Source: an uncultured Chloroflexia bacterium (GTDB lineage: Bacteria; Chloroflexota; Limnocylindria; Limnocylindrales; CSP1-4). Taken from it: a stretch of DNA of 64,000 nucleotides. This document shows positions 4,436-64,000 of the stretch, piece after piece; within the stretch, counting starts at the first letter, position 1, and the number at the start of each line of letters is the position of its first letter. The position numbers were made by a program, and so were the translations under genes. The stretch spans positions 480,052-544,051 of the forward strand of contig CAVXSS010000002.1 in the NCBI GenBank assembly GCA_963764515.1, in the 5' to 3' direction. The notes under the pieces were generated by a model. The model saw nothing but the letters and a program-made list of their open reading frames with translations, ran no database searches and was not told the DNA's origin.

Positions 4436-4513
4436 CCGCCGGGGGCGATCGCGAAGACCGCGTCCGAGAAGAAGACGATCCGCTCGAGCGAGAACGGCCG
4501 GGCGCCTCGTCGC

Positions 4514-7945: not shown

Positions 7946-8002
7946 CGCTCAAAGCATCGCACGGTGGCCGTGGCCGACGTGCAGCCCGCGCGGGCGGGGA
8001 GG

Positions 8003-36548: not shown

Positions 36549-36657
36549 CGTTTCGGCTACACGGGTGGCGTGGAGGCGGACCGTCGATGTCGACCCCTGG
36601 CGGATGCCCTTGGGTTCGAATCGACCTGGCTCTTCGACCATTTCCGGACGGTCCCGG
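36549..36657 (+). pseudogene. Remnant (~36 aa) of a luciferase-like (LLM-class, F420/flavin-dependent) oxidoreductase N-terminus
   Basis: The frame reads ...SRFGYTGGVEADRRCRPLADALGFESTWLFDHF.... It resembles the N-terminal region of LLM oxidoreductases but is not continued downstream, so it is a likely gene fragment. Confidence 0.2.
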
Positions 36658-44886: not shown

Positions 44887-45450
44887 TCAGCTGCCAGCCA
44901 CGCGGCACTGGTTGACCAGTCGCCCGACGCCGTGGATATCGACGACGACCTCGTCACCGTCGCGCAAGAAGCGGGGCGGCTCGCGGAAGACCCCGACCCC
45001 GATGAGGGCGTCCTGCATGACCTCGCCGTTGACCAGGCAGCGGATCCTAAGGATCGTGGGATCCGGCAACTCGTCAGGCGTCACGATCCACGGTCCGAGC
45101 GGGCAGAACGTATCCAGGCTCTTTCCGCGCACCCACTGGCCATCGCCGAACTGCAAGTCACGGGCGGAGACGTCATTGAGACAGGTATACCCGAGAACGC
45201 GGTCGAACGCGCGCGAGGGCGGGACGCCGCGCGCGGTCCGGCCGATCACCACGGCGAGCTCGGCCTCGTAGTCGACTTGCGCCGTGTCGGCCGCTCGCCA
45301 AACGATGTCGGCCCGATCGCCGACCAGGCTGCTCGGGAACTTGGCGAAGATGATCGGCGCGGCCGGCGCGGTCGTGCCCTCCTCGGCAGCGTGCTCGTGG
45401 TACATCTCGCAGATGACGCAGTCAGAGCGGTCCGAGGTCATGGGAGGCAC
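44887..45450 (-). CDS. Fumarylacetoacetate-hydrolase (FAH) family protein, 187 aa
   Basis: The product reads ...IIFAKFPSSLVG...VDYEAELAVVIGR...GYTCLNDVSARDLQ...WVRGKSLDTFCPLGPWIV.... Its stop abuts the LarA start, suggesting an operon. Confidence 0.7.
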   Translation of the reverse strand: MPPMTSDRSDCVICEMYHEHAAEEGTTAPAAPIIFAKFPSSLVGDRADIVWRAADTAQVDYEAELAVVIGRTARGVPPSRAFDRVLGYTCLNDVSARDLQFGDGQWVRGKSLDTFCPLGPWIVTPDELPDPTILRIRCLVNGEVMQDALIGVGVFREPPRFLRDGDEVVVDIHGVGRLVNQCRVAGS

Positions 45451-46964: not shown

Positions 46965-49900
46965 TCAGTCGAGCGAGGACGTGATCCCAAGCGTCGCTGT
47001 CTTGTGCTGTGACGGCCGCCCACCTGAGTTTCTGACGAACATCTTGATCGAGACGTTGTTGGCTTTGGCGACGCTATCGATCTCGGGCAAGGCGACGGCA
47101 TCGCTTGCATACGCGCTGGCCGCGTTGCAGGAGAGCGGCGACCCGGGACTGCCGTGGGTGGCGAGCAGCGTGGCGCCGTCGTACACCTCGAAGTAATAAC
47201 AAGTCGTGTCGCCAACCGTTGCCGAGCGATACGTGTGGCGGAAGGTCGCGCCGGTGACGACGGAGCCCGCCGGAACGTATGCGGGGAACGTCAGCTTCAG
47301 GTATCGACTGCTATCGAACGATGTCGACCAGCTGGACGTCGAGGTGTATGCGCCATCGCTGACGATGATGACGAACGACTGTACGGCGCTCGTGTCGACC
47401 CCGCCGTTCGCGGTGCCGCCGTCGTCGTGGATCCGGACGCTGACCGTGGCGATACCCGCAGCGCCGGCCGCAGGGGCGTAGGCAAGCGTGCCGGTCGCGC
47501 CGACCGCAGGCTGCGAGCTGAACAGCGGGTTGTTGTCGTTGGTGACGAGGAAGTCGACGACCTGGCCTGCCTCGTCCACCGGACCCGTCGTGATGGCCGT
47601 CGCCCAGCCGCCGACGCTCTGCGCAGCGGCCTCCTGGCGGACGGTCTGGTCGGCGCCCTTGGTGAAGCTCGGCACGTCGTTGACGGCCGTGACGGTGATG
47701 GTCGCGGTCACCGTGTTCGAGTCGAAGGTGCCGTCGTTGGCCTTGTATGTGAAGGTGACGGCTCCGTTCGCGTTGGCGACCGGGGCGTAGCTGAAGGACC
47801 CGTTGGCATTCAGCACCAGGGCGCCCGTGGCGACGTTCGAGACGAGGATCGCACTGAGCGGGTCAGTGTCGGGGTCGGTGTCGTTGAATAGCACGCCGTT
47901 GTAGGGCGTCCCGGTGATCGGCACAACTAGCGTCGTATCTTCCCTGGTCGTGTAGCTGTCCGCGACGGCCGTCGGGGCGCTGGCGATGAGAACCGCGCCG
48001 GATACCGTCGGGGTGCTGCTGTTGCCGACGTTGTCGATGACGACGAGCTGCCAGCGGTAGCAGTTGCCGTTGACCAGGCCGATATGGTTCCGTGGGCTGC
48101 TGCCGGTGTCCGGCGCGCCGTCATTCGCGTAGGACACGCTGGCGCATGTCCCGGGAGTGACCACGCCTCCCTTCTGCCGCTGGAGCGATCGCGAGGCCAC
48201 GCCGGACCCGGTCTCGGTCTCAGACCAGGTGACAGTGACGCTGGTCGCGGACTGGGTGGTCAGGCCCGCGACGGGGATCGAAAAGGTCATCGACGGCGCA
48301 ATGGCGTCCGCGGTGAGGGTGACGGTCCGGGTAGCGCCCGCGGTCAGCACGTTGTTGTAGGGCGTCACGGTGATGTTGGTCGTGGCCGAGGAGGCGGTCC
48401 AGGTGGCGTTCCTGGCCGCCGGGTTGCCGGCGACATCGCCGGAAGCGTAGGTCCATCCCGTTCCAGCGGAGAGCGCACCGTAGTTGTGCTTGTTGATGCC
48501 CGAGGCCGGGTCCGTCGAGCTCGAGGAGAGACTGATGGTGCCCGTGGCGCCGCCCTTGAACCAGATCGCGCTGTTGGGACTCGACTGGTAGACGTTGGTG
48601 CCGGAGCCGGTCACGTTCGGCTGGCTGGGCGCGGTGGTGTCGATCAGTACGGCACCGGACGTGGATCCGGCCGCGTTGCCCGCGAAGTCGGCGAGCGTCT
48701 GGACCCAGCGATAGCAGGTGCCGGTGACGAGCGGACTCTGGGCGACCGAGGAGACGGCCGTGCTGGGAGCGCCGTCGGTGCTCCATGCGGTGGCGGCACA
48801 GGATCCCGGAGAGGACTGGCTGCCCTTCCAACGCTGGAGCGAGCGGCCGCCAGTTGTGGCGACACCGATCCCGCTGCCGTCGCTCTCGGTCCAGGCGATC
48901 GTGTAGCTCGTGGCCGCCTGGAGGGTCGTGGTGCCCTCGTTAGGAGTGGTGAAGTCCGCTGTCGGGGCGGTCGTGTCGAAGGAGACGTTGTCGAAGGTGG
49001 AGGTGTTGAGGGTGCCTGCGACATGCGAGGTGACGACGAGGCCCACGTTGATGGTGCTGCCCATGGTGATGGTCTGCGTCGCGCCCACCGCGGTCCACGT
49101 CACACCATCTGGCGAGCGCTCGGCAAGGAATGTGCTGCCGATCCTGGTCATGCGCACCCAATAGGGCGCGCTGATGCCGCCCAAAACGGTTCCCGTGGCT
49201 GAGGCACCAGTCGTCGCTCGGTAGATCGACTCGGCTCCGGCGGTTCCTTCGATGTCGGCCAACGCCATGGCACTGGTTGCGCCGGTCGTGTCACGGAACA
49301 TGACCCCGCCCTTGGCGGACACCGCCGTGTTCTGGACCGCGAGGACCTTAGCCGTCAGCTGGCCATCGCCGGTCATCGTGCGGTACACGAATTGGAATGC
49401 GTCCGTGGTGCCCCAGATGTCCGCGCCGCCACCTTTCACCGTGTACGTGCCACCGGAGAAGGTCGTGGATCCGACGATGCCGGTGGTGCCGACGTCCCCG
49501 TTGGTCGTGAAGATCCCGAGGGCGTAGACAGTGATGGCGATGGAGTCGGTGTCGGTCAGGTTACCGCCGGAGCCCGTGTTGCCGAGGTCCTTGGTGACGA
49601 CCTGGAGCGTGGCGGCGCCGCTGAAGGTCGAGGTCGGGATAAAGCTGGTCCCGGCCAGGGCAGCATTGATGTTGCCGATCGTCCCGCGGAAGGTCATCGT
49701 CGCGTCGGCGGTGCCGTCTCCGGCGCCCGTGCCGTTGGCGTCGCTGAAGGCGAAGCTCAGGCCGCCGGTGCCCGACAGGCTGACGGTGCCGTTGGTGCCG
49801 GTGAGCTGCACCTGGACCGTCGCTGCAGCGGCGTCGCTGTCGCTGATCGAGATGGGGTTGCCGTTGGCGCTGGAGAAGACCAGGGTCACGCCCTTCGAGG

Positions 49901-52900
49901 TGTCGGCCACCGCGGGCAGGCTGTTGAGCGGCGCGTCGTTCACGGCGTTGACGCTGATCGTGACCGTGACCACGTTGGAGTCGCGGAGGCCGTCATTGGC
50001 CTTGTAACTGAACGAGTCGGTGCCGTTGAAATCCCTGCCGGGCAGGTACGTGAACGAACCGTCGGCGCTGAAGTTGAGGTAGCCGTTGGCCACATCGGAA
50101 ACGAGCAGTGCCGTCAACGGGTCGGACTCCGGGTCCGTGTCGTTGGCGAGCACGCCAGTGCCGACGGCCACAGTCAGCAGCGCGTCTTCGTTGACCGAGT
50201 AGCCGTTGGCGACGGCCGTCGGGGCGACATCGGCGACGACCGTGATCGCGACGTTGTCCGTGTCGCTCAGCGATCCACCGGGGCCGGTGTTGCCCTGGTC
50301 GTTGGTAACGATCTGGAGATTGGCCGAGCCGACATAACCGGCCGTCGGGGTGTAGGTCATGCCCGCCAGCGCGGCGTTGATGTTGGCGAGCGTGCCGGTG
50401 AAGGTCATGGTGCTGTCGGCAGAGCCGGTCCCAACAGTGAACGCCAGCCCGGTCGTGCCGGAAAGGGTCAGGGTTCCGTTCGTGACGGTTAGCTGCTCCT
50501 GCACGCTTGCTGCCCCAGCGTCCACGTCGGAGACGGAGACAAGATTGCCGTTGGCCGTGGAGAAGACGAGGGAGTTATGCGTAGCCTGCGCACCCGGCAC
50601 GCCATTGATGGGAGCGTCGTTGACGGCCGTCACGGTGATGCCGCGCGTGGCGGTGTTGCTGTTCGATGAGCCGTCGTTGGCGACGAACGTGACGGTCCGG
50701 GCGAGCGTGCTGGGTGCATCGCTGGTGTTGGTGTAGGTGATCGACCGGAGGGCCGTCTGGTAGAAGGCCTTGGTCGCACCGCCGGTCAGGGCGAGGACAC
50801 CCGTACCGGCGGTCCAGGTGCCGGTGATGCCGTTCTGGTCGACGAAAGCGAGGGAGTCCTGGGGGTTGGCGTAATTGGTCGTCATCGTGATCGTCGCGGA
50901 GACGAGATTGGCCGAGTCGGCGTCGGTGACGGTGATGCCCGGGTCGAGCAGCACCGCGCCACCGTTCTCCGTGTAGGCCAGTGCGGCGACGGTGGTGGTG
51001 ACCACGGGTGCGGCAGTCGCGGGGTCGGCAATCGTCCAATCTGCGGCGGCAAAGACCGTGATCCCTGTCTGCTGAATCCAGTTGGCCGTCGCATCGCGGG
51101 TGGTGCTCGCCTTGGTGGGGTCCTGCTCGGCCCAGGTACCAGCCAGCTTCCAGAGGCCGACGACGCTCTCCGTGTTGCCGTTGAGCTCCGCGTCCAGGTA
51201 GTGGAGGCGGACCGTGGCCGTGAGCGCGCCGCCGCCGGTCGGCGTGAAGGTGTAGGTCCGGGTGACGGCCCCGGTCTTGGCGGCCGGTGCGGCCTTGACC
51301 AACTTGACCTTGAAGGCGGTCGGCGCGGTGCCGGAGTTGATGGTGATCTGGTTGTGCGGGTTGCCGAAGCAACGCATCGTCCCGGTGCCGATCGTCGTGC
51401 GGCTGACTCCGCCGGTGGCCGACAGGATCGAGGTCACGTCCGTCGTTCCGCTGCACGTCGCCGCAGAGCCGAGCGTCAAGACGTTGGCATTGCCGGCACC
51501 GGAGCCCGTCGAGAGGTCGCCGCTGTCGAGCGACAGCACGCCGTTGACCGTGGCATTTCCGGCCAGCGTCGCGCCGCTCCCGTTGTTCATCCTGAGGTGG
51601 CCATAGGTCACCGCGCTGACGGTTTGAGCCGCGCTCCCGGCGTACTCCACGGTCAGGTTGGTCAGTGTGGTGTTCGTGATCGTGTACTGGTTGCTGAAGC
51701 CGGCGGTGGCCGCCGTCCGCGTGACCTTGACCGTGCCGCTGCCGGTCAGCGTCCCCGAGCCGCTCATCACCGATGCGGCGGCAGGCGTGAACGTGCCACT
51801 GGCGCCGACGGTGAACGTTCCGTTGGCGGCGAAGTTGCCGGTGGCGGAAACGGCCGCTGAGGTGGCGATGGTGAGGCCCTGGAACGTGAGCGTCCCGGCG
51901 TTCGAGATCGATGAACCGTTGTTCATCGTGACGGTGCCGGCGGTTGCTGCCAGGACGGCCGAGGCGTTGACCGTCAGGGCGGTGGCCACGCCGAAGGTCG
52001 CGTTCGAGCTCACGTTGCTGCCGCTGATGACGAGGTTGCCGTAGACCTGGCTGCTGGCGAGCGCCGCCACGGCGGTCGTGGTGCCCGCATACTCGATCGT
52101 GCTGGTCGCGGCGACCGAATGCGTCGCGTAGCCCGCCGGGAACGTCCGCGTGCCGCCGATCTTGAGCGTCGCACCCGCGGCCACGGTGAGCGTTCCGGCG
52201 GGCACCGTTCCTGCAGCCAGCGCGGCCACTTCGACGCCGGTCAGACCGCGGTTGTAGATGCGGAAGTCGTCGACGCGTCCGTCGAAGTACGTATCGGCGG
52301 CGTACTGGGATCGGCCGATCCAGTTGTTGGCCGTGTTGCCCAGGCTCGACGGACCGAGCGTCATGCCGGTGTTCTGGCCCACCTGCGAGCCGTTCACGTA
52401 GAGCGTGCCCGTGTTGCCCGACTTGGTCACCGCCACGTGGACCCATTGGGCGATCGGCAACGCAGCTGTGCCATTGATGACCTGCTCGGTCCCGGCGCCG
52501 CCGGTGGTGATGGCAAAGCGGACGACGTTCGTGCTGCCGTTCTGCGCCGTCAGGAACATGTACGCGGTCGTGCCCGTGCCGTAATCGAAGATCCGCCGCC
52601 AAAGGCCAGTCGTGTCGCGCCGCACCCAGGTCGCGAAGGTGAAGTTGCTGAGCGTGCTGACGATGCCGGTCGGCATGGTGACGTGTTGGTTCGAGCCGTC
52701 GAGGTTGACGGCTTGTCCGATCTGACCGGTGGTGAACGTCGGGGTATTGACCAGCGTGCCATCGAGCCCGGCGCCGCCGCTGTCGGTAGCGTCGTTCTCG
52801 AACTCGTACCACGCGAAGAGTCCGGCCGCGCCGTTGTCGGCTTTGAACGTGCTGAGATCGAAGGTGCCGCCATCGATCCTCAGGTCGCCGATGACGCTCA

Positions 52901-53141
52901 CATCGGCGCCCAGTGTCAGCGTGCCGCTGGACTTGTTGACGACGAGGTCGTTGACCACCGCGGGAAGGCCGTTTCCGGTCGCCTGGGTGCCCGACCCGTT
53001 GTACGTATAGTTCGCGCCCGTCGAGTACGTGCGCGCGCCGGTGACCTGGACGTTCCCGCTCGCGCCGGAGCTGGTGATGCCGTTCGTAGACGTGATGCCG
53101 AGCGTCGCGCCGCTCGACAGGGTGAACGACCCGCGCCCCGG
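46965..53141 (-). CDS. C-terminal ~2058-aa segment (frame C) of a giant secreted subtilase-adhesin
   Basis: This is the ORF 46965..52958 extended upstream in-frame to the TGA at 53142-53144. It contains two LamG/concanavalin-like jelly rolls, repeated Ig-like modules, VNDAP Big_9/cadherin-like repeats and a distinct C-terminal domain. The LamG units read ...WVHVAVTKSGNTGTLYVNGSQ...FDGRVDDFRIYNRGLTGVEV... and ...WVRMTRIGSTFLAERSPDGVTW.... The Ig-like modules read ...GTCYRWVQTLADFAGN... and ...GNCYRWQLVVIDNVGN.... The repeats read ...TDPESDPLTALLV...TVTAVNDAP.... Confidence 0.75.
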   Translation of the reverse strand, partial: PGRGSFTLSSGATLGITSTNGITSSGASGNVQVTGARTYSTGANYTYNGSGTQATGNGLPAVVNDLVVNKSSGTLTLGADVSVIGDLRIDGGTFDLSTFKADNGAAGLFAWYEFENDATDSGGAGLDGTLVNTPTFTTGQIGQAVNLDGSNQHVTMPTGIVSTLSNFTFATWVRRDTTGLWRRIFDYGTGTTAYMFLTAQNGSTNVVRFAITTGGAGTEQVINGTAALPIAQWVHVAVTKSGNTGTLYVNGSQVGQNTGMTLGPSSLGNTANNWIGRSQYAADTYFDGRVDDFRIYNRGLTGVEVAALAAGTVPAGTLTVAAGATLKIGGTRTFPAGYATHSVAATSTIEYAGTTTAVAALASSQVYGNLVISGSNVSSNATFGVATALTVNASAVLAATAGTVTMNNGSSISNAGTLTFQGLTIATSAAVSATGNFAANGTFTVGASGTFTPAAASVMSGSGTLTGSGTVKVTRTAATAGFSNQYTITNTTLTNLTVEYAGSAAQTVSAVTYGHLRMNNGSGATLAGNATVNGVLSLDSGDLSTGSGAGNANVLTLGSAATCSGTTDVTSILSATGGVSRTTIGTGTMRCFGNPHNQITINSGTAPTAFKVKLVKAAPAAKTGAVTRTYTFTPTGGGALTATVRLHYLDAELNGNTESVVGLWKLAGTWAEQDPTKASTTRDATANWIQQTGITVFAAADWTIADPATAAPVVTTTVAALAYTENGGAVLLDPGITVTDADSANLVSATITMTTNYANPQDSLAFVDQNGITGTWTAGTGVLALTGGATKAFYQTALRSITYTNTSDAPSTLARTVTFVANDGSSNSNTATRGITVTAVNDAPINGVPGAQATHNSLVFSTANGNLVSVSDVDAGAASVQEQLTVTNGTLTLSGTTGLAFTVGTGSADSTMTFTGTLANINAALAGMTYTPTAGYVGSANLQIVTNDQGNTGPGGSLSDTDNVAITVVADVAPTAVANGYSVNEDALLTVAVGTGVLANDTDPESDPLTALLVSDVANGYLNFSADGSFTYLPGRDFNGTDSFSYKANDGLRDSNVVTVTISVNAVNDAPLNSLPAVADTSKGVTLVFSSANGNPISISDSDAAAATVQVQLTGTNGTVSLSGTGGLSFAFSDANGTGAGDGTADATMTFRGTIGNINAALAGTSFIPTSTFSGAATLQVVTKDLGNTGSGGNLTDTDSIAITVYALGIFTTNGDVGTTGIVGSTTFSGGTYTVKGGGADIWGTTDAFQFVYRTMTGDGQLTAKVLAVQNTAVSAKGGVMFRDTTGATSAMALADIEGTAGAESIYRATTGASATGTVLGGISAPYWVRMTRIGSTFLAERSPDGVTWTAVGATQTITMGSTINVGLVVTSHVAGTLNTSTFDNVSFDTTAPTADFTTPNEGTTTLQAATSYTIAWTESDGSGIGVATTGGRSLQRWKGSQSSPGSCAATAWSTDGAPSTAVSSVAQSPLVTGTCYRWVQTLADFAGNAAGSTSGAVLIDTTAPSQPNVTGSGTNVYQSSPNSAIWFKGGATGTISLSSSSTDPASGINKHNYGALSAGTGWTYASGDVAGNPAARNATWTASSATTNITVTPYNNVLTAGATRTVTLTADAIAPSMTFSIPVAGLTTQSATSVTVTWSETETGSGVASRSLQRQKGGVVTPGTCASVSYANDGAPDTGSSPRNHIGLVNGNCYRWQLVVIDNVGNSSTPTVSGAVLIASAPTAVADSYTTREDTTLVVPITGTPYNGVLFNDTDPDTDPLSAILVSNVATGALVLNANGSFSYAPVANANGAVTFTYKANDGTFDSNTVTATITVTAVNDVPSFTKGADQTVRQEAAAQSVGGWATAITTGPVDEAGQVVDFLVTNDNNPLFSSQPAVGATGTLAYAPAAGAAGIATVSVRIHDDGGTANGGVDTSAVQSFVIIVSDGAYTSTSSWSTSFDSSRYLKLTFPAYVPAGSVVTGATFRHTYRSATVGDTTCYYFEVYDGATLLATHGSPGSPLSCNAASAYASDAVALPEIDSVAKANNVSIKMFVRNSGGRPSQHKTATLGITSSLD

Positions 53142-53251
53142 TCAAGGTCGTCGTCGTGCCGGCCATCTGGAGCGTCGCGCCGCTGTCGACGATGAAGGCG
53201 ACGTCGTTCGAGACGGTCCCGCCTGACGCGTACGTCTGCACACCCGACCCG

Positions 53252-55780
53252 TTAAAGGTGACGCTGCTCGTGGTGCTCGTGCCGGTCTCGGTCAGCGTTC
53301 CGCCTGAATGGGTGAAGTCGCCGGCGACGTTGAGCGTCACGCTCGCCGCCGATTCGATCGCTGAAGTCGAACGACCCGCTCGAGAGCGAGAAGTTGCCGC
53401 TGACGGACATCGCACGAACGCCGGTGCCGATCGTCCCGCGCAGCGTGCCACCCGTCTGGGAGTAGTCGCCGCCCACGGCCAGGTCACCCGCGGCGTTGTT
53501 GCCCAGTGCGAGCGCGCCGGTGGTGCCGGTACTGGTGACGGTCATGTTCCCGTTCACCGTCCGGAGGTAGCCGCCGAGGCTGAAGGTCGTGGTCTGGTTC
53601 GGGGTGTTCCAGACGAAATCCCAGAACGACTGATTATAGCCGATGTCCGAGGCGCCGCCGCCTGGCGGCGAGGTGTAGCCGACGATCTCGATGGTCGAAC
53701 CCGCGCTCCATGTGGCGGTCGGGATGACGCCGTCCGCCGTCGTCCACGCGTGCTGGTACCGGCCGCCGCTGTTGACGACGATCGTGGCGCCGGTGTTGAT
53801 GGTCACCGTCCCGGCGCTACGGAACGTGCCGGTCACCGACAGGTCGGTACCCGCCCCCGCGTTCAGCGTCAGCGTGATGCCGCTGTTGAGGTCGAGCTCG
53901 CCGCCCGCATCGACGACGACCTCGTCCGCCGTCACGTTGGCAGCGACGGTCACGATGTGGGCGTTACGGATCGTGATCGTGCTGGCCGCATTGGTCGGCG
54001 CGAGGGTCGCGGTGCTCCACGTGACACAGCCGCCGGCGATCGGAGCGCTCTGCCAGGTGCCTGTCGTGGCCCAGTTGCCGCTGGCACGGGAGCGGAAGCA
54101 GTCGGTCGACGTGGAGGCCGCCACGTAGGGACCCACGAAGGGGCCACCGTCGGCGGCTCCGGTGTTGCCGGCCGGGGTGACCGGCTCCGTGGCGGCGTCC
54201 TGCGCCGCGCGAGCGAGGTCGAGGCGGCCGTTGCCGGTCTGGGCCCGCGTGCCGACGGCTGCCGCCGAGCGCGCCAGGCGGCCCACGATGACGGCGTTGC
54301 TGGCGGTGGTGTCGAGGGCCCAGAGGAGGGCCGCGGCACCGGCCACCTCGGCGGCGGCGGCGCTGGTGCCCGAGACGCTGGTGTACTCGTCGTCGGTGAG
54401 CGGGTCCGCGTCGGCGTTCGCGGCGGTGGTCAGGATGTCAACGCCGGGTGCCGCCAGGAAGGTCTGCGGTCCGTGGTTGCTGTCGGCCGCGAGGAGGTCC
54501 GCCTCGTCGGTGGAGGCAACGCCCATCACACCGCGATCGCCGGCGGGGTACGTCGGCGTTGTGACGCCGTCGTTGCCCGTCGCCGCGACGATGACCGCCC
54601 CGCCGTCCCAGGCGTAGTCGATCGCCGCCTGGAGCGCGGCCGAGTAGCCGGGGGCGGAGAACGCGAGGAGGATGACGTCCGCGCCATTGTCCGACGCGTA
54701 GAGGATGCCGCGGATGATGTCGCTGTCCTGGCCCGTTCCGTCCGCGGCGAGAACCGCGACCGGCATGACCCTGACGCCTGCCGAGCCGATGCCGGCGATG
54801 CCCTCGCCATTGTCGGTCGCCGCGGCCACGATGCCGGCCATCCACGTCCCGTGGCCGTTCGGGTCGGTCAGCGGGTCCGTGCCGACAAAGGATGCGCCTG
54901 GGATGGTCCGGCCGAGGAGATCCGGATGCGAGGCGTCGACTCCGGTATCGAGAACCGCGACCAGGGCCTCGCCGTCGGTCGGAACGCGGACCGATGGCCA
55001 GCCGATCCTTGGCAGCGACCACTGGTCCGCGTAGCGAGGGTCAGCCCCGACCGCCTCGACGGCGCGGGCGCGATCGAGCTCCACGTGCACCACGCCCGCG
55101 CGCGCGCGCAAGGCGGCCGCGCCGGCAGTAGCAGCTGCCGCCGGCAGCTCCACGACGGCGAGGCCGAGCGCGGGAACCGTCGAGACGATCATGGCGCCGC
55201 CTGTCGCCAGCGCGGCCGCCTGTTGTTGAGCCGACGTCCATCGATTGAAGGTCACGATGTAGCTCACGGGATTGGTCGTGACCGACGATGGCTCTGGCGG
55301 CGAGGATGCGCCCAGCGGAGAAGGCGCCTGCGTGAGGGGTGCGCCAGGAGCCGGGCCCGGTTCCGGCACGCCGCTCCCTTCGGGCAATGGCATCGGGCTC
55401 GGTTCCGGCGTGATGCTCGCTTCAGGCGGCGACTCTGGGTCAGGGGACGGCTCATCGGGAACGGCCGATGGGTCGACCTCCGGGGGTTCGGTCGGCGTGG
55501 GCTCGGCGGTCGGCGAGGGCTCGGCGGTCGGCGAGGGTTCGGCGGTCGGCGAAGGTTCGGCGGTCGGCGAAGACGACGGATTCGGGGCGACGGATGCGGC
55601 CATGTCGGACGGAACCGGGGTCGCAGGGTGGGCCGCGGTCACGGAGGCCGGCATCAGCACCGTCGCCACGTAGAGAGCGGCCAGCATGCCGGCTCGGATC
55701 CCGGCGGCGCGTGCAGCGCTGGACCGGAACCATCGGGTCCGGATCGACCGCTTCCGGATCATGGGATGTCGAGCCCCCAT
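53252..55780 (-). CDS. N-terminal segment (frame A) of the giant protein: Sec signal peptide, Pro/Ser/Glu-rich linker, S8 subtilisin-like protease domain, then beta-helix-like T/G/S-rich repeats
   Basis: The S8 catalytic triad is VAVLDTGVD (Asp), NGHGTWMAG (His) and SGTSAAAAEVAG (Ser). The last ~35 codons of this ORF (DRIGGERDAQRRRRL...) are post-frameshift noise. Confidence 0.8.
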   Translation of the reverse strand: MGARHPMIRKRSIRTRWFRSSAARAAGIRAGMLAALYVATVLMPASVTAAHPATPVPSDMAASVAPNPSSSPTAEPSPTAEPSPTAEPSPTAEPTPTEPPEVDPSAVPDEPSPDPESPPEASITPEPSPMPLPEGSGVPEPGPAPGAPLTQAPSPLGASSPPEPSSVTTNPVSYIVTFNRWTSAQQQAAALATGGAMIVSTVPALGLAVVELPAAAATAGAAALRARAGVVHVELDRARAVEAVGADPRYADQWSLPRIGWPSVRVPTDGEALVAVLDTGVDASHPDLLGRTIPGASFVGTDPLTDPNGHGTWMAGIVAAATDNGEGIAGIGSAGVRVMPVAVLAADGTGQDSDIIRGILYASDNGADVILLAFSAPGYSAALQAAIDYAWDGGAVIVAATGNDGVTTPTYPAGDRGVMGVASTDEADLLAADSNHGPQTFLAAPGVDILTTAANADADPLTDDEYTSVSGTSAAAAEVAGAAALLWALDTTASNAVIVGRLARSAAAVGTRAQTGNGRLDLARAAQDAATEPVTPAGNTGAADGGPFVGPYVAASTSTDCFRSRASGNWATTGTWQSAPIAGGCVTWSTATLAPTNAASTITIRNAHIVTVAANVTADEVVVDAGGELDLNSGITLTLNAGAGTDLSVTGTFRSAGTVTINTGATIVVNSGGRYQHAWTTADGVIPTATWSAGSTIEIVGYTSPPGGGASDIGYNQSFWDFVWNTPNQTTTFSLGGYLRTVNGNMTVTSTGTTGALALGNNAAGDLAVGGDYSQTGGTLRGTIGTGVRAMSVSGNFSLSSGSFDFSDRIGGERDAQRRRRLHPFRRNADRDRHEHHEQRHL

Positions 55781-56514
55781 GGGATGATCTCCGTTGTGGT
55801 GTCCGCGGCGTCGCGGAACATCACCGGATAGAGGGTGAAACCCTGGTAGGCGGTCGATCCGACGACGGTCGCCTGGTCGATGACCATCGCGGCGTTGCCG
55901 GACTCCTTGCCGAAGATGCGGACGCGCAGGTCGTTCGCGATCGAGGTCGTCGCCGCTGCCGGGATCGACGTCGAGAACGTCGTCGGGGTCGTTCCGGTGA
56001 CGCAGCCGACCGGGCTACCTGGACTGCCGTGCGTCCCGAGGACCGCGCCGGTCGAGATCCTCCGAACCTCGAAGTAGTAACACGCCTGGCCCGCCCCGCT
56101 GCTGGCAAGCCTGAGGTCGAACGTTGCGGCAGAGACGGCCACACCCGAGGCCAACGAATCGTTGAGGTCGAACTCGAGGTACCGGCCGGCCGCGAAGGTG
56201 CTCGACCAGGTCGACGTGGTCACGGTCAGGCCATCGCCCGAATAAGCGAACGAGTTGGAGCGGTCGACCTCGACGCCGGATGATGAATCGCCGACCTCGA
56301 ACGCGGGGGTGACGCGTTCGCCCGGGAACAACGCCTTTGACCCGAACAGGGCCACCCCCTCCGTTTGAGCCGTGAAGATGGCGAGGCTCAGTCCAACCAT
56401 GGCGAAAGCGATGGAGACAAGCGCGCCCACGGCCGCAAACACGATGACGGCACGGAAGCGGCGCCTCGGGGTGGCGATGCCGATCGCGTCTCGCCCTCCC
56501 GCTCGGGCGGTCAT
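55759..56514 (-). CDS. Exported TasA/camelysin-like small protein whose C-terminal ~135 aa is homologous to the C-terminal domain of the giant subtilase-adhesin
   Basis: The N-terminal TM/signal region is followed by LAIFTAQTEGVALFGS, resembling the TasA-type mature N-terminus. The C-terminal region ...GQACYYFEVRRISTGAVLGTHGSPGSPVGC... parallels ...TTCYYFEVYDGATLLATHGSPGSPLSC... at the giant protein C-terminus. It overlaps its neighbours by 4 and 22 bp. Confidence 0.6.
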   Translation of the reverse strand: MTARAGGRDAIGIATPRRRFRAVIVFAAVGALVSIAFAMVGLSLAIFTAQTEGVALFGSKALFPGERVTPAFEVGDSSSGVEVDRSNSFAYSGDGLTVTTSTWSSTFAAGRYLEFDLNDSLASGVAVSAATFDLRLASSGAGQACYYFEVRRISTGAVLGTHGSPGSPVGCVTGTTPTTFSTSIPAAATTSIANDLRVRIFGKESGNAAMVIDQATVVGSTAYQGFTLYPVMFRDAADTTTEIIPWGLDIP

Positions 56515-57062
56515 GGGACCCCTGCCTGCCGGGTAGCGCCGAATGACAGCGTCACGGTTGTAGTCGAGCCCTGGAGCCCGTTATCAGAATCCCACGGCAG
56601 GTCTGCCCGGAAGCACAGGATCTCGGCGGTTGCAGCGGGCAGCGGCCGGCCGTCGACTTCGTTGCCGAACGCCGCGTCATCGAGCGGGCCATCGAACAGG
56701 GTCATGCCGTCGAAGTCCGCGCAGGATGAGCCGATCGTCTTGATCGTGAGGAGCAGCGCCGCCGAGAGACGGTGTCCACCGACTGCCACGAGCCCACGGC
56801 GCATCGCGTACGTCACGGGTTCACGACCGGAGTTCGTCACGGTTATCGAGGCCGCGACCGAGTCTCCGGGAACCAAGTCGCGGGCCGACAGAGTCGCGTC
56901 TCGTGCGTCGGCACTGAGATCGATCGACGAGATCTCGAATCGGTCGGGGGCAGCCACGTCGGCGCGCGGCGGGCTGGATGTGACCGTCTTCCAGGTGAGC
57001 CACGCGCATGCGATCGATAGCACGACGATCAAGGTCACCGCAAGCCGCCGGCTTCGGGTCAT
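56511..57062 (-). CDS. Exported/membrane-anchored small protein (possible SipW-cognate substrate)
   Basis: The 183-aa product has an N-terminal TM segment (LAVTLIVVLSIACAWLTW) and is beta-rich and acidic. It sits between sipW and the TasA-like gene above, with 4-bp overlaps on both sides. Confidence 0.5.
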   Translation of the reverse strand: MTRSRRLAVTLIVVLSIACAWLTWKTVTSSPPRADVAAPDRFEISSIDLSADARDATLSARDLVPGDSVAASITVTNSGREPVTYAMRRGLVAVGGHRLSAALLLTIKTIGSSCADFDGMTLFDGPLDDAAFGNEVDGRPLPAATAEILCFRADLPWDSDNGLQGSTTTVTLSFGATRQAGVP

Positions 57063-57607
57063 GGCGCGATCGGCTCTCGGGCATCAGCCGGGATCGTGCG
57101 GGCGCGCGGCTCGAGCATTTCGAGGAGCACATGGAAGAGGAGGAGTGCGCCGAGGAGGCACAGCGCGGCGAGCACGCCGGGACCCTTTGACAGGAAGTCC
57201 TGGGCGTAGCCGGCGTACGGCACGTACCGGTCCGCGGCCCCGACGATCGCCCGACCGGGAACGAGGCTGGCGTCTGGATCCTGGTTGGCGTCGCCCTTCG
57301 TTTCGAAAAAGCGGCCTTCCGGCAGATCGACCACGCGACTCACGCGGTGGGTCACGACGACCTCGTTGTCGGCGCGGATCGTGATGACGTCGCCGACGCC
57401 GACCGTCATGACGTCGGTCGGGGTGACGACGACCAGGGAGCCGATCGGGATCGCGGGCTCCATCGAGCCGCCGACGACGACGAACAGCTGGTGGCCGGTG
57501 AGCGGTGCGAAACGGGTGAACAGAGCGAAGCTGATGAGGAGGACGAAAAGCGATATCCCGATGAGACCGACGGCCCGACGCGCGAGACGGGACGAGCTCA
57601 GGATCAT
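57059..57607 (-). CDS. sipW: Signal peptidase I, archaeal/SipW-type
   Basis: The product has an N-terminal TM segment, then the VVVGGSMEPAIPIGSLVVV catalytic-Ser motif (GSMEP) typical of SipW-type SPases, then ...GDANQDPD.... It also has a C-terminal TM (VLAALCLLGALLLF). Confidence 0.8.
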   Translation of the reverse strand: MILSSSRLARRAVGLIGISLFVLLISFALFTRFAPLTGHQLFVVVGGSMEPAIPIGSLVVVTPTDVMTVGVGDVITIRADNEVVVTHRVSRVVDLPEGRFFETKGDANQDPDASLVPGRAIVGAADRYVPYAGYAQDFLSKGPGVLAALCLLGALLLFHVLLEMLEPRARTIPADAREPIAP

Positions 57608-57679
57608 CGAGATCGCGCTCCATTCATGCGAGAGCGGTCCGACCGTCGGTCGGACCGCTCGGTGCTGCCGGGCGACGGC

Positions 57680-58255
57680 CTAGTTGTTCTGGGTTTGCTC
57701 GGCGTTGAAGGTGAAGGTCGTGACCGCAGTCGCGCCCTGGAACGTTTCGTCGGTGGCAAGCGGGAGGGAGACCCGGATGCAGAGCACGTCGGTCGCGGCG
57801 GCAGCCACGGTCCGATCGCCGGTTCCGTCAGTCGGTGAAACGCTGCCGAACATGACGTTCGAGGCGCCGAGCACTTCCGACGCCTGGAGGACCGTGCCAT
57901 CAAAGTCGTCGCACTTGACGAGCGGAGTGGTGGCGTCCACGGTCCTGACCTCAACGGTCAGGGCTGCGTTGAGCACGCCGCCGTTCGGGCCAGCCACGCT
58001 CGTCGACGTGGTGTTCAGCGAGTAGCGGAGCTCATTGGTCCCGACGTTCTCGACGTCGACTGAGCCGGTGTTGGAGTCACCAGGCATCATGTTGGCATTC
58101 GTGAGCGAGAGGGCGTCGATCTTCGTCGCGTCGAGGATGATCGTCCCCGCAGTGAACGTCCCGTCGACGGTCTCGGTGTCCGTGAACACGGCTAGGGACG
58201 TCGCCCCGACACCGATGCTCGCGACTGTGAGGGCGGCCCCGAGAGTGAGAAGCAT
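57680..58255 (-). CDS. TasA/camelysin-family (peptidase M73-like) exported protein with SipW-cognate-type signal peptide
   Basis: The ORF 57680..58813 was trimmed to the ATG at 58255. The 191-aa product reads MLLTLGAALTVASIGVGATSLAVFTDTETVDGTFTAGTIILDA..., matching the TasA-family signal peptide plus AxF(T/N)D mature N-terminus, and is beta-rich. It is the first gene of the sipW operon. Confidence 0.75.
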   Translation of the reverse strand: MLLTLGAALTVASIGVGATSLAVFTDTETVDGTFTAGTIILDATKIDALSLTNANMMPGDSNTGSVDVENVGTNELRYSLNTTSTSVAGPNGGVLNAALTVEVRTVDATTPLVKCDDFDGTVLQASEVLGASNVMFGSVSPTDGTGDRTVAAAATDVLCIRVSLPLATDETFQGATAVTTFTFNAEQTQNN

Positions 58256-58578
58256 GCGTCTGCGCTTGGTGTCCAAGGTGGTTCTCGTTTCTCTACATGC
58301 GTTGCGGTGGGTCGCCGAGCGATCGCCATGTCGCCGGCTTCGCCGGGGTCCTTGGCTCGCGCGGTCGATGCCATTACAGGACACGAAGGTGGTACCCGTA
58401 AGTACCCGAATTCCGCGCGACGTCAAAACTATCGAGTGCCGGCTGGTGCCGCGGCGGTCCATCGAACGTGATGCGCCGTTCAGATGGGCGTTGTCCGCGC
58501 ACGAGGGCCTTCGCGTGTTGCGTGGATGCCTACAGGATCGGGCACCGCTCGAAGCGCCCGATGTAGTACTGATGGCTG

Positions 58579-58666
58579 TCGGTGGTCGAGTGGTTGGTGT
58601 CTCGTTCGCCAGATCACCGAAGAGCGCCTGATAGACTTCGCGCCGCGGGCGGGAGTAGCTCAGTTG
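58579..58666. repeat. Right copy of the ~85-bp imperfect direct repeat (perfect core 58624-58666)
   Basis: See the left copy at 46826-46910. The two copies lie ~11.75 kb apart and bracket exactly the tasA-sipW-giant-adhesin operon. Confidence 0.7.
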
Positions 58667-58695
58667 GCAGAGCGGCAGCCTTCCAAGTCTCCCGC
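58644..58695 (+). other. tRNA-like minihelix: acceptor-stem-like 7 bp (GCGGGAG/CTCCCGC) enclosing a canonical D-arm (TA-GCTC-AGTTGGCA-GAGC) and 15 further nt; no anticodon or T arm could be folded
   Basis: The element starts inside the right repeat core. The left repeat copy keeps GCGGGAGTAGCTCAGTTGG but loses D-stem closure. This suggests a tRNA-gene remnant or tRNA-like attachment-site relic rather than a functional tRNA. Confidence 0.3.
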
Positions 58696-58917
58696 TGTCG
58701 AGCGTTGTGCTCTGATCACAGGATCCCCGCACAAATCGGCCGATTGGGGCCCAGTTTGACGCTCGGGTGCGACAGCGTATAAGTCGGCCACAGCGGATAA
58801 CTTCCTGGGACAATTGAGCGCTGTCTCGGGCCCCTGGATCGATGCCTGACGAAGGGATCGCGCGGTCCTCTTCAATGCCCGGGCCAATGGGCCTCTGGGG
58901 GCGGGACGGGAACCCCG

Positions 58918-60054
58918 CTAGTTGACGGGCTGTGATGCGAGCGTCGTGAGGTCGATGGTCTCGTCGCCAGCCACGACCGCGGCATCATATCTGCGCTGGA
59001 GGTTCGTCACGAGTCGAACCACCGTGTTGCCGCAGACTCCGGTCGACAGGTAGACCCGCAGCCACTCCGGAGTTATGTCCATGCGGAATTGCTGTCCGAC
59101 GTGAAGGTCAACGACTTCCGCCTCTGCGAACTGGTCGTTCACCAAGCGGGGGACGGCCCAAAGCCGGAACGGATCGCGACACGAGAAGAGGCCTGTCAGG
59201 AATTGACCCATATCATCGATCCGGCGACCGAAGCTGATCTGCAGGACGTGCCCCTCGAAGCCAAAGCCGCTTTGCTCAGAGCCCTCCCAGCCAATCGAGA
59301 AGTGCCGCTCGATGTGCCGTACCGCCTGGGCGTATGCCTGAACGGCGCCGGCCATGAAGCCCAAGTGGAGTTCGAAGGCGGCGCCACGGGCGGCGAAGCG
59401 CCCTTGATAGTGGGCTGCTTCGTCGACCACTCCGAGATCCGGATCGCGCATCCGAAGGGCCACTCCGCTTAAGGCTGTCGACAGGCGATACCGGTCGTCA
59501 CCGATGAGCTGATCGAGCAACTCATCCGCCGAATCGCCCTCAAGCTGCACCCGAAGACGCCGCGCGCGAACTCCCTCCAAGGGCAAGAGTTCGTCGCCCC
59601 GGAACTCCGACTTGAACCATCGCGGCTCACCGGCACCCTGCAACCCACGAAGGAACTGCCAGGGGAACCAGCACCAGTCAATGCCCCGTGACGACCAGAC
59701 TGCTCGTCGCAGCTGACCCTGCACGATTCCCGCGGGAGCCGCTGTATGAATCAACCAAAATCGTGGATCAAGGACGTCAACGAAGAGCCCAACGGAGTCA
59801 TCCCACAGAAGAGCCAAAGCTGGATCGTCGGTCCGAGACATCGAGAGGCCAAGTCTTCTCCCGAGGGCTGCGACAGCATCAAGAGGGTTAGGCTCTTCGT
59901 GCCCGGAGTTCACCTCTAGGGCATAGCTCTTGACCTCGCCTGCACGCAGCTCAAACGGAAGGCGATCGGGTTCTCGGCGCTGACCCGACATTGCTGCTGT
60001 CAGAAGACCAGCGATACCCTCGCGGTCGATCGGCACGGATGGGACAGCCGTCAC
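58918..60054 (-). CDS. Hypothetical 378-aa protein, no family recognisable by eye; lower-GC gene
   Basis: The ORF is intact and has GC of roughly 58-60% against ~70% in the flanking DNA. It begins 3 nt after the stop of the upstream gene, so it is operonic. It contains an RHIERH (Rx4H) stretch and a Trp-rich segment WCWFPWQF, but no confident motif. Confidence 0.55.
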   Translation of the reverse strand: MTAVPSVPIDREGIAGLLTAAMSGQRREPDRLPFELRAGEVKSYALEVNSGHEEPNPLDAVAALGRRLGLSMSRTDDPALALLWDDSVGLFVDVLDPRFWLIHTAAPAGIVQGQLRRAVWSSRGIDWCWFPWQFLRGLQGAGEPRWFKSEFRGDELLPLEGVRARRLRVQLEGDSADELLDQLIGDDRYRLSTALSGVALRMRDPDLGVVDEAAHYQGRFAARGAAFELHLGFMAGAVQAYAQAVRHIERHFSIGWEGSEQSGFGFEGHVLQISFGRRIDDMGQFLTGLFSCRDPFRLWAVPRLVNDQFAEAEVVDLHVGQQFRMDITPEWLRVYLSTGVCGNTVVRLVTNLQRRYDAAVVAGDETIDLTTLASQPVN

Positions 60055-60057
60055 GTC

Positions 60058-60984
60058 TTAGCCCTCCCCGCGCTCGATCTCTTGCCCGAGATCTTCAAAC
60101 GACATCTGCCCAGCAGGGACCCTGGCCGCCCTCGGTCTTCCTCTCAAGGTGCGCTCGGCTTTGCGCCGCATGCTCTGCCATCCCTGAGTCTCGCCTCTCG
60201 GATCGAAGGCAGCAGGTGACCGGAGGATACGGAGGACGCTGCCTTGGATGTCGGCGCCGCCAGGTTCAACCGACAAGTACTCGGTGAGCTCGCCCTCCGA
60301 CATTCGCCGGACGATGGTCGTCGCCCGGTCGCGCATTCTTGATCGGGCCCGCTGACCGTAAACGCTTGAGTAGGGAATGGCGGCGGCCAGCAGGCTGTCG
60401 AAGGTGATGACCGTTTCTCCTCGCGCGGCGGCGGCGACTATAGCAGGAAGGAGAACCTCCCTGAGCTCCTCATCTGGGCTGTCAGCGTCCACTGGGATCA
60501 ACCGTGGTGGGGGACCGGCCGGGACGTTCACTTCGAACGGCGTCAGCACACTGCTACCCCTCGTCTCCAGCTTCACGCTCGAAGAGCCAATCACCAAGAG
60601 AGGAGCCTGAAAGCCAATAGCGCGAAGGCCGGTCACAACTCGCTCTTGCGACTCCTCGAGACAGGCATAGAGGGGCTGCACAATCGCTCCGGTGGGAGGA
60701 AACGGAAGGGTTACGTTTCGAGCGACGTTGTCCGCGGTCATGACCTCGTATCGTTGGGCTTGATCAGCCTCGACGTTGTTGCCGCTCTTGCACTCCGTCG
60801 GCAGAAGGATCTGTCGATCAGCGTTGAGTCCGAGCCCGTCGACAACCACGGACGTGCGTGAGGTGGAGATGGGAATCTCGAACCGCTGGATGCGGAAGCC
60901 TTGGTCACGAAGGGGAGCGGGCCAACCACCTTCGCCTGTCAGTAGGGCGATCCAGGCGTTGAGCGGGATCAGACGTGGTTCCAC
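60058..60984 (-). CDS. Hypothetical 308-aa protein with N-terminal PD-(D/E)xK nuclease-like motif (VVVDG...ILLPTECK); lower-GC gene
   Basis: It has a GTG start. The beta-strand-D then ExK arrangement, ~13 residues apart, mirrors the HsdR nuclease motif seen in this window (DVILFVNGLPLVLIELK). The C-terminal ~150 aa are unassigned. Confidence 0.5.
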   Translation of the reverse strand: MEPRLIPLNAWIALLTGEGGWPAPLRDQGFRIQRFEIPISTSRTSVVVDGLGLNADRQILLPTECKSGNNVEADQAQRYEVMTADNVARNVTLPFPPTGAIVQPLYACLEESQERVVTGLRAIGFQAPLLVIGSSSVKLETRGSSVLTPFEVNVPAGPPPRLIPVDADSPDEELREVLLPAIVAAAARGETVITFDSLLAAAIPYSSVYGQRARSRMRDRATTIVRRMSEGELTEYLSVEPGGADIQGSVLRILRSPAAFDPRGETQGWQSMRRKAERTLRGRPRAARVPAGQMSFEDLGQEIERGEG

Positions 60985-61075
60985 TCGTTGGGTCGCCTAA
61001 CGCCCAACGAGGGTAGTTGCGGACCGGCTTTCTAGAACATATGTGCTAATCATACTCCCGACCGTTCCTTCCGCA

Positions 61076-63990: not shown

Positions 63991-64000
63991 GCCGTCGACG

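Follow-up and report, generated by a model that had tools for sequence, protein, structure and literature searches.

Gene-breaking residual indels are a known property of Nanopore-only (Flye + Medaka) assemblies (PMC9262707). The Microflora Danica genomes were produced with Flye on Nanopore reads, with one Medaka round and no short-read polishing (PMC12313526). The 64,000-nucleotide stretch analysed here (the window) resembles such metagenome assemblies: what we read as single-base length errors split otherwise intact ORFs, and a sister assembly holds the intact copy. It includes a giant gene encoding a single intact secreted multidomain protein (~2,936 aa) of a soil Chloroflexia bacterium, which in the window record appears in three reading frames. 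This appearance is probably the product of consensus errors private to the assembly, with a technical cause.

The minus strand carries a single protein-like reading from 55780 to 46965, with frame changes at ~53351–53359 and 53133. In a three-frame translation of 52900–53560(−), the T/G/S-rich sequence occupies first frame A (ORF 53252..55780), then frame B (~53340–53135) and finally frame C (ORF 46965..52958), and each frame becomes Arg-rich once abandoned. Third-position GC is highest in phase 1 above ~53460, in phase 0 at 53130–53340 and in phase 2 below 53100, these switches coinciding with both junctions. Removal of one base per junction yields a stop-free ORF of 2,937 codons. The features of the locus, with residue numbers for the restored protein, are as follows.

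46965..53132, minus strand: giant gene, frame C part, with the remainder of the β-helix-like domain to ~nt 52833; stop at 46965–46967
~47022–47306, minus strand: C-terminal domain, paralogous to the small protein encoded just upstream (up1)
47688–47981 and 49956–50225, minus strand: examples of the cadherin/Big_9 repeats (Pfam Big_9, Cadherin_4, Cadherin_5)
~48978–49526, minus strand: DUF1349-like ConA-type domain, a sub-threshold match (E 2.4e-4)
within 46965..53132, minus strand: Ig-like modules
~51021–52211, minus strand: second β-rich region
52224–52700, minus strand: Laminin_G_3 (Pfam; aa 1027–1185)
53085..53467: ~380-bp patch divergent from the sister record, with 24 substitutions, all five extra bases and both junctions inside
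53133, minus strand: junction 2 (B to C), one extra base relative to orthologs
53134..53350, minus strand: giant gene, frame B part (74 codons), middle of the β-helix-like domain
53351..53359, minus strand: junction 1 (A to B), net +1, in a length-variable loop
53360..55780, minus strand: giant gene, frame A part, ATG at 55780, with signal peptide, Pro-rich linker, S8 subtilase (nt 54263–54967) and the start of the β-helix-like domain
55759..56514, minus strand: up1, a small protein whose SipW-type signal contains …SLAIFTAQTE… and whose body is paralogous to the giant C-terminal domain (E 2e-14)
56511..57062, minus strand: up2, a TasA/camelysin-like paralogue of the 57680–58276 protein (E 7e-18)
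57059..57607, minus strand: SipW/archaeal-type signal peptidase I (TIGR02228, 95.8 bits against a cutoff of 51.85)
57680..58276, minus strand: TasA/camelysin-like protein (Peptidase_M73) with a SipW-dependent signal peptide (TIGR04088, 26.3 against 19; PF12389, 30.1 against 22.5)
58694..64000, minus strand: island segment with an MJECL33-like gene, an MJECL32 gene and hsdR (running past the window end), used as an internal control

More than 270 homologues align without a break across both junctions and the restored 425-aa β-helix-like domain folds as one confident domain (AlphaFold2 mean pLDDT 93, pTM 0.91), and the three-frame reading stands far above chance. Both junctions map to inter-strand turns of the model, junction 1 to a loop at model residues ~251–256. 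The restored ORF and its domains bear out the preliminary description, made from the DNA letters, of one giant S8–LamG–cadherin-like secreted-protein gene spread over three frames.

The predicted domain order runs from a Sec signal peptide and Pro-rich linker through an S8 subtilase with a fervidolysin-like propeptide and the 425-aa domain to Laminin_G_3. It then continues with the second β-rich region, cadherin/Big_9 and Ig-like modules, the ConA-like domain and the C-terminal domain shared with up1. The protease triad had been called intact, as it is: D278 (VLDTGV), H310 (NGHGTW) and S473 (SGTSAA), together with the oxyanion residue N403 (TGNDG), can be assigned by motif, all in frame A. Two further claims about the domains have to be revised. 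Only one of the two proposed LamG jelly rolls passes threshold, the other being the DUF1349-like region, for which a PDB sequence search returned nothing; and the supposedly novel C-terminal domain has its paralogue next door, in up1. Domains and context together suggest an extracellular protease/adhesin. Within the secreted subtilase/adhesin class, the intact gene is unremarkable apart from its very large size.

Nearly identical to the window is a 1.78-Mb sister record (ENA ERZ25039539 contig_16962), at 99.6–99.96% identity over the ~38 kb compared (99.96% over 5.4 kb, 99.92% over 20.8 kb and 99.63% over 11.6 kb). The only indel in the 20.8-kb alignment falls between called genes, and the 1,143-aa amylase-like protein, the SipW-type signal peptidase and a permease are encoded identically. 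Gene calling on the sister record gives the giant gene as an uninterrupted 2,936-aa product with an identical start (MGARHPMIRKRS...); 2,907 of its codons were verified as stop-free, at 99.5% amino acid identity to the restored window protein. A JGI contig (L061) likewise holds a complete, uninterrupted ORF (2,899 codons), and another ortholog (L062) has 1,763 open codons. The Chloroflexia MAG L003, from Microflora Danica, encodes aa 1–1701 in one frame through both sites, with a private extra G of its own elsewhere, and the L001 ortholog also passes both sites in frame. The ortholog comparison called for in the preliminary description thus finds single ORFs in the sister record and L061, and all five other copies in frame at both junctions.

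At junction 1 (context GATCGAATCGG) the window is 4 bases longer than the sister record, L003, L061 and L062, and 2 shorter than L001. Junction 2 lies within ccggggcgcgg (minus strand), the 'ccgcgccccgg' run noticed earlier. Here the window has GGGGCGCGGG, where the sister record reads GGGGCG-GGG, L061 and L001 read GGGG-GCGGG, and L003 and L062 read GGAG-CCGGG; the window sequence is a superposition of the first two of these alleles. Unlike at junction 2, no simple superposition of known alleles reproduces the window at junction 1. The differences from the sister record are concentrated around both sites, with 24 of the 38 substitutions in the 11.6-kb alignment, and every extra base, inside 53085–53467. 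In a wider alignment (53060–53490) the window alleles are common to other orthologs at 20 of the 29 substituted sites, so the patch is a real alternative haplotype. The giant gene as a whole is a mosaic, in which segments of up to 1.5 kb match at 100% identity in bacteria that share only ~75% identity in the flanking genes, a pattern that suggests frequent recombination of a surface determinant.

The island at the end of the window offers an internal control. Positions 58694–64000 are 99.7% identical to ERZ25039533 contig_44683, in which hsdR (1,067 aa) and MJECL33 (482 aa) are intact, and against which the window has five private single extra C's. Two of these are the hsdR slips at 63255 and 62082; their removal restores HsdR, leaving 2 aa differences. 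The adjoining MJECL33-like gene has three single-base insertions (58770, 58918 and 58986). Of the island mismatches, 4 are transitions and 7 transversions; the collinear chromosome has 15 transitions and 1 transversion. The island is without an integrase and without the MJECL33 3′ end, and a tRNA-Gly is truncated. An early count of four events in 64 kb was therefore correct as to hsdR and too low overall, at least seven frame-breaking insertions now being counted, all within 47–64 kb and in two loci within 17 kb. The ~26 kb compared with the sister record elsewhere in the window contain no frame-breaking insertion and only one indel. Partial matches to FAA_hydrolase (short), DUF3536 and lactonase in the window were also examined as possible further frameshifts; FAA_hydrolase was ruled out, being similarly short in the sister record (184 aa called; 187-aa ORF in the window).

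These breaks share a character. Those of a single base never duplicate a neighbouring base and never fall in runs of five or longer, and indels are frequent relative to substitutions. An assembly error of homopolymer type had been among the early suggestions; the assembly error is favoured, the homopolymer type is not. Suspecting the sequence data before the biology was sound advice, the length differences being private to the window assembly and absent from near-identical independent assemblies. Motif-associated Nanopore errors were also considered: junction 1 shares GATC/TCGA with hsdR site 1, and junction 2 shares GCGC with hsdR site 2. We set this link aside, such 4-mers being ubiquitous at 68–70% GC. 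The sister records carry Flye-style contig names. L001, from the same ERZ number range, shows 43 non-triplet indel clusters in 8.2 kb against the intact L061, beyond homopolymers too.

Privacy to this assembly, with the breaks absent from a near-identical sister and four other relatives, is what makes us favour consensus error. Two such errors, net +1 at 53351–53359 and +1 at 53133, would have split an intact gene, both in a 380-bp stretch for which the population carries divergent alleles; errors of this kind, each a single non-templated base, would likewise have broken hsdR twice and the MJECL33-like gene three times. The source would be a long-read metagenome assembly, Flye-style and, judging from contig size and relatives, probably Nanopore-only. 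The difficulty for this reading is that seven breaks in two loci within 17 kb do not follow from uniform random error, which we reject (the chance of four events falling in only two genes is ~1%). An error that is locally concentrated is preferred on this ground, and a local cause must be assumed, for which we conjecture a pile-up of mixed strains or low coverage at these loci as plausible mechanisms. Moreover, inactivation in real strains commonly strikes just these classes, restriction genes and giant surface proteins, and the missing integrase, the missing MJECL33 3′ end and the truncated tRNA-Gly would also fit genuine decay of the island. Inactivation itself is the strongest competitor: the two adhesin-gene insertions and the five of the restriction–modification island would all be real, the result of very recent, strain-specific pseudogenisation, and only an 842-aa truncated protease fragment would be made. 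Lesions clustered in accessory, strain-variable loci beside ~26 kb of clean sequence, an integrase-less island that abuts a truncated tRNA-Gly, like a decaying remnant, and the recombination that did occur at the junction patch, with its allele common to orthologs, all speak for it. We nevertheless hold it to be unlikely. Downstream of the breaks, substitutions in the window lineage are still under purifying selection: dN/dS against L003 is 0.36 upstream and 0.26–0.36 downstream, and branch-specific single-nucleotide changes downstream (synonymous/nonsynonymous) number 96/45 for the window, 101/46 for L003 and 262/110 for the intact L061, although such tests are blind to inactivation within the last ~0.1% of divergence. 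The 2,059 downstream codons contain no stop; the raised dS of the inter-junction segment B (0.41) comes from the L003 branch rather than the window. The ratio of indels to substitutions is far above that usual for natural decay, and every event is an insertion, none a slippage-type duplication. The natural mutation spectrum of bacteria, in contrast, is biased towards deletion and slippage. Two independent events would fall 226 bp apart in an 8.8-kb gene with only ~5% chance, and at 99.6–99.96% identity the sister record is intact.

The preliminary description also raised two regulatory readings, both of which are rejected. Programmed recoding, by two successive +1 ribosomal frameshifts or by transcriptional slippage, would give a full-length protein, and its single point of appeal is that the three segments jointly encode one conserved protein. 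Recoding sites are conserved among orthologs, yet five of five orthologous copies read both junctions in one frame. Inspection showed neither a slippery or stall motif nor an A/T run permitting transcriptional slippage; within 53120–53365 the frame in use lacks any CUU-UGA-type or rare-codon/SD arrangement. Unrelated genes nearby are broken by extra bases of this kind as well. We regard it as extremely improbable. Phase variation, with a hypermutable repeat tract switching a surface antigen, would suit the gene classes, a large surface or secreted protein and a neighbouring type I restriction–modification system being classic phase-variable types, but neither junction has a simple-sequence repeat, the longest run there is G4, and none of the five 5-nt homopolymers of the giant gene differs between the copies compared. 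The chance that it applies here is, to our minds, negligible.

In annotation, the window record will yield a protease of 842 aa, a 'hypothetical' protein of 1,997 aa and broken versions of hsdR and the MJECL33-like gene, products that probably do not exist in this form. For protein-family and pseudogene statistics, sequences from the sister assembly or after error correction are advisable. Even where a long-read MAG contig is otherwise clean, strain-variable loci can gather residual indels that mimic 'decaying accessory genes'. As with the described errors of Nanopore-only metagenome assemblies, relatives from the same data series are affected too, at other positions (one in L003; 43 clusters in L001). 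The window differs in that its errors would not be of the homopolymer kind and are all insertions, and in that they occur only in strain-variable stretches of a contig that is very clean elsewhere and whose platform is judged from its size and relatives.

The restored protein itself compares with large secreted subtilases that carry adhesive or carbohydrate-binding modules, such as Peptidase_S8 proteins with a fervidolysin-type propeptide and tandem-95/cadherin-like repeat proteins. It shares with them a PF00082 domain far above threshold (aa 272–506; 125.6 bits against a cutoff of 21.8), the D/H/N/S residues, Laminin_G_3, Big_9 and Cadherin_4/5 modules, and tandem-95 repeats. It differs in its size of 2,936 aa, in having no recognisable cell-wall anchor, in a C-terminal domain common to a small neighbouring protein and in the 425-aa β-helix-like domain, which is without a Pfam model and elsewhere occurs mainly N-terminally in T9SS-sorted Bacteroidota proteins. 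With its short, regularly spaced β-strands, the model of this domain invites comparison with right-handed parallel β-helix proteins (passenger domains of Ag43, Hap and IgA1 protease, pectate-lyase-like enzymes and phage tailspikes). Nearly all of the 50 Foldseek PDB matches listed are β-helix or related solenoid proteins, none of them significant (best E 0.03, TM ≤ 0.32). It differs in having no assigned sequence family and in not being the passenger of an autotransporter.

Upstream of the giant gene lies a conserved cluster in the order TasA-like protein, SipW-type signal peptidase, TasA-like protein and up1, with the giant gene last. up1 is kept in L003, L001 and the sister record, and the upstream block also aligns in L062; the signal peptidase is identical in a Logan contig as well as in the sister. 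Run ERR11718635 also holds sequence that matches. Equivalog-level assignments are not reached, with NF046067 (SipW) at 94.7 against a cutoff of 190 and the TasA equivalog at 25 bits, far below its cutoff of 450. The systems to compare are the tapA-sipW-tasA operon of Bacillus subtilis and the TasA-like archaeal bundling pili (PMC9674648, PMC10151520, PMC9245690). The cluster described here differs from the Bacillus operon in phylum; no TapA homologue was identified in it, and its up1 and giant subtilase-adhesin are without Bacillus counterparts. What the two have in common is a SipW-type signal peptidase between two camelysin/TasA-like proteins with SipW-dependent signals, here directly upstream of the giant gene. 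We tentatively raise the possibility, with more doubt than conviction, that the intact giant protein is the putative last component of an extracellular fibre system of TasA/SipW type in Chloroflexia, its C-terminal domain docking the protease-adhesin onto or into the fibre. That the giant gene is linked to a TasA/SipW-like cluster, and that this linkage is conserved in Chloroflexia, offers a modest lead.

A single T/G/S-rich reading runs through the giant S8 subtilase-adhesin gene (minus strand, 55780 to 46965) in three frames. Three-frame translation of 52900–53560 follows it out of frame A past ...SGSFDFSD, through frame B as SAASVTLNVAGDFTHSGG...LQMAGTTTTLTGA and into frame C, where it resumes as GSFTLSSGATLGITS...; every frame turns Arg-rich once the reading has left it. 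The third-position GC maximum changes phase at both junctions (junction 1, frame A to B, 53351–53359; junction 2, frame B to C, 53133), matching the frame switches, in a window of 63–73% GC (mostly 65–72%). Deleting one base per junction yields a stop-free ORF of 2,937 codons. The two switches of the preliminary description are thus borne out by translation, GC phase and restored ORF alike.

Features of the giant gene and its surroundings
53252..55780, minus strand: ORF in frame A, 842 aa, ATG start
46965..52958, minus strand: ORF in frame C, 1,997 aa
52833–54109, minus strand: β-helix-like domain, 425 aa (aa 558–982), containing both junctions
55759–58276, minus strand: conserved four-gene cluster directly upstream of the giant gene

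Exact-protein look-ups matched three window proteins to a 1.78-Mb sister record (ENA ERZ25039539 contig_16962).

Window stretches aligned to the sister record
3514–8945: 99.96% identity, no indels
30272–51095: 99.92% identity (15 transitions, 1 transversion), one indel, between called genes
47054–58687: 99.63% identity, five extra window bases

Gene calls in that record give the giant gene one product of 2,936 aa, with 2,907 stop-free codons confirmed (99.5% identical to the restored protein), reading FDFSSVAASVTLS and LTGAGSFALSS at the two junction sites. The 11.6-kb comparison places 12 substitutions at 51819–52341, 24 substitutions and all five extra window bases in a patch at 53085–53467, and the remaining two substitutions elsewhere. 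Across 53060–53490, other orthologs share the window alleles at 20 of 29 substituted sites, which makes the patch a genuine alternative haplotype; both junction length changes are private to the window. At junction 2, the window GGGGCGCGGG is a superposition of the known alleles GGGGCG-GGG and GGGG-GCGGG. Over the 26 kb compared beyond the giant gene, the window differs from the sister record by a single indel, at 36621 between two called genes (GAA-TCGA versus GAATTCGA). A FAA_hydrolase-family gene (44887–45450, minus strand) is unusually short, its 187-aa ORF covering profile positions 9–149 of 214 and apparently lacking ~30 residues ahead of the C-terminal GDxV motif; we take it as genuine, because a 184-aa gene is called at this position in the sister record.

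Comparison with orthologs, advised in the preliminary description, found one ORF in L061, and L062, L003 and L001 read through both sites. A genome scan supplied L003 (a Chloroflexia MAG from Microflora Danica; 90.6% nucleotide identity), a metagenome scan the JGI contigs L061 and L062, and a protein match the ENA contig L001.

Orthologs of the giant gene
L061, contig edge to stop: uninterrupted ORF, 2,899 codons
L062, to contig end: 1,763 open codons
L003: aa 1–1701 in a single frame across both window junctions
L001: open through both junction sites; 43 non-triplet indel clusters in 8.2 kb versus L061

L003 carries a private extra G of its own (L003:13394), whose removal gives a 3,043-codon ORF. 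A five-way DNA alignment gives the window exactly one extra base at junction 2; at junction 1, inside a length-variable loop, its net gain is +1. Against L003, dN/dS is 0.36 upstream, 0.34 between the junctions and 0.26–0.36 downstream. With L061 as outgroup, the window branch shows 96 synonymous and 45 non-synonymous single-nucleotide changes downstream of the breaks, the same balance as L003 (101/46) and the intact L061 (262/110); the breaks are therefore extremely recent or not real.

Compared with L003, the giant gene is mosaic: 99–100% identical stretches of up to 1.5 kb (48450–50023, 52200–52420, 53844–54068, 54600–54900) alternate with stretches at 70–85%, while the flanking genes show only ~75% identity; this pattern suggests that segments recently recombined or were transferred between species. 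A more distant S8 and β-helix homologue, P0018, occupies 7996–14581 of L002 (ENA ERZ25039562 contig_114941), downstream of type IV pilin (N_methyl) and T2SSE genes. It ends in Arg-rich noise, then ORFs with a 4-nt overlap, and is probably another frameshift-fragmented giant gene of the same assembly series.

The island at 58694–64000 serves as a control, aligning at 99.7% identity to ENA ERZ25039533 contig_44683, which holds an intact hsdR (1,067 aa), preceded by hsdM and hsdS, and an intact MJECL33 gene (482 aa).

Broken genes of the island, with their private single extra C's (five in all)
58694–60054, minus strand: MJECL33-like gene; 58770, 58918, 58986
61076–64000, minus strand: hsdR, reaching past the window edge; 62082, 63255

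Probed with Deinococcus HsdR, hsdR shows exactly two frame switches, confirming the two single-base slips reported earlier; removing both C's leaves a stop-free protein with two substitutions only. The MJECL33-like breaks were absent from the earlier list. None of the single-base insertions duplicates an adjacent base or lies in a run of at least five bases. Island mismatches are transversion-rich (4 transitions, 7 transversions). Two parts of contig_44683 are missing from the window: the integrase of the island and the final 91 nt of MJECL33. A tRNA-Gly(TCC), intact in the sister record, is truncated at 58646–58690: its 5′ half stops abruptly at 58688–58693, where the R-M/MJECL32-33 island begins, and ARAGORN found no tRNA in the window. 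The 58688–58693 junction (within 58640–58700) marks the remnant of a decayed island or else a chimeric join from assembly.

The three-frame encoding of the giant gene is most likely not real. We consider a consensus artefact probable: the extra bases are private to the window and are all non-templated insertions; indels are numerous relative to substitutions; selection shows no relaxation; a near-identical sister copy has no breaks; junction 2 resembles the union of two alleles; and the relatives come from data of a fitting type. Microflora Danica assemblies combine Nanopore reads, Flye and one Medaka round (PMC12313526), and gene-breaking residual indels are documented for such data (PMC9262707).

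A real, very recent pseudogene would fit the clustering of breaks in accessory loci and an island otherwise degraded (integrase missing, tRNA truncated), yet is unlikely given window-branch selection like that of intact relatives and the intact sister copy. Two earlier proposals are excluded: programmed frameshifting to a full-length protein, by shifts not conserved in orthologs and the lack of a shift motif at the junctions, and phase variation of a surface antigen, by the lack of a repeat tract there. Beneath the probable artefact lies an intact gene for a secreted subtilase-adhesin that is ordinary apart from its very large size; the gene belongs to a conserved TasA/SipW-like cluster and shows mosaic recombination between lineages. 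The cluster encodes a SipW-signal TasA/camelysin-like protein, a SipW/archaeal-type signal peptidase, a second TasA-like protein and up1, a small SipW-signal protein (55759..56514, minus strand) whose body is paralogous to the C-terminal domain of the giant protein (E 2e-14). L003, L001 and the sister record all keep this gene order, and L062 also aligns over the upstream block.

Profile matches in the restored protein (one base removed per junction)
aa 272–506: Peptidase_S8 (Pfam, 125.6 bits)
aa 1027–1185: Laminin_G_3 (Pfam)
Also: Big_9, Cadherin_4 and Cadherin_5 (Pfam); fervidolysin-type propeptide (Pfam, weak); tandem-95 repeats (NCBIfam)

The protease triad is intact as described, the S8 motifs D278/H310/N403/S473 all being present. 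The claim of two LamG domains is half right: Laminin_G_3 stands, and the second is a ConA-like region matching DUF1349 below threshold only.

Residues 558–982 match no Pfam model. AlphaFold2 modelled the restored 425 aa with confidence (pLDDT 93, pTM 0.91); the model has short regular strands and places both junctions in inter-strand turns. None of the Foldseek PDB matches listed is significant; nearly all are parallel β-helix or related solenoid proteins. More than 270 homologues are all continuous across both junctions; most are N-terminal domains in T9SS-sorted proteins from Bacteroidota, and hundreds of T9SS-sorted proteins from Bacteroidota, Ignavibacteria, Cloacimonadota and Verrucomicrobiota share the domain.
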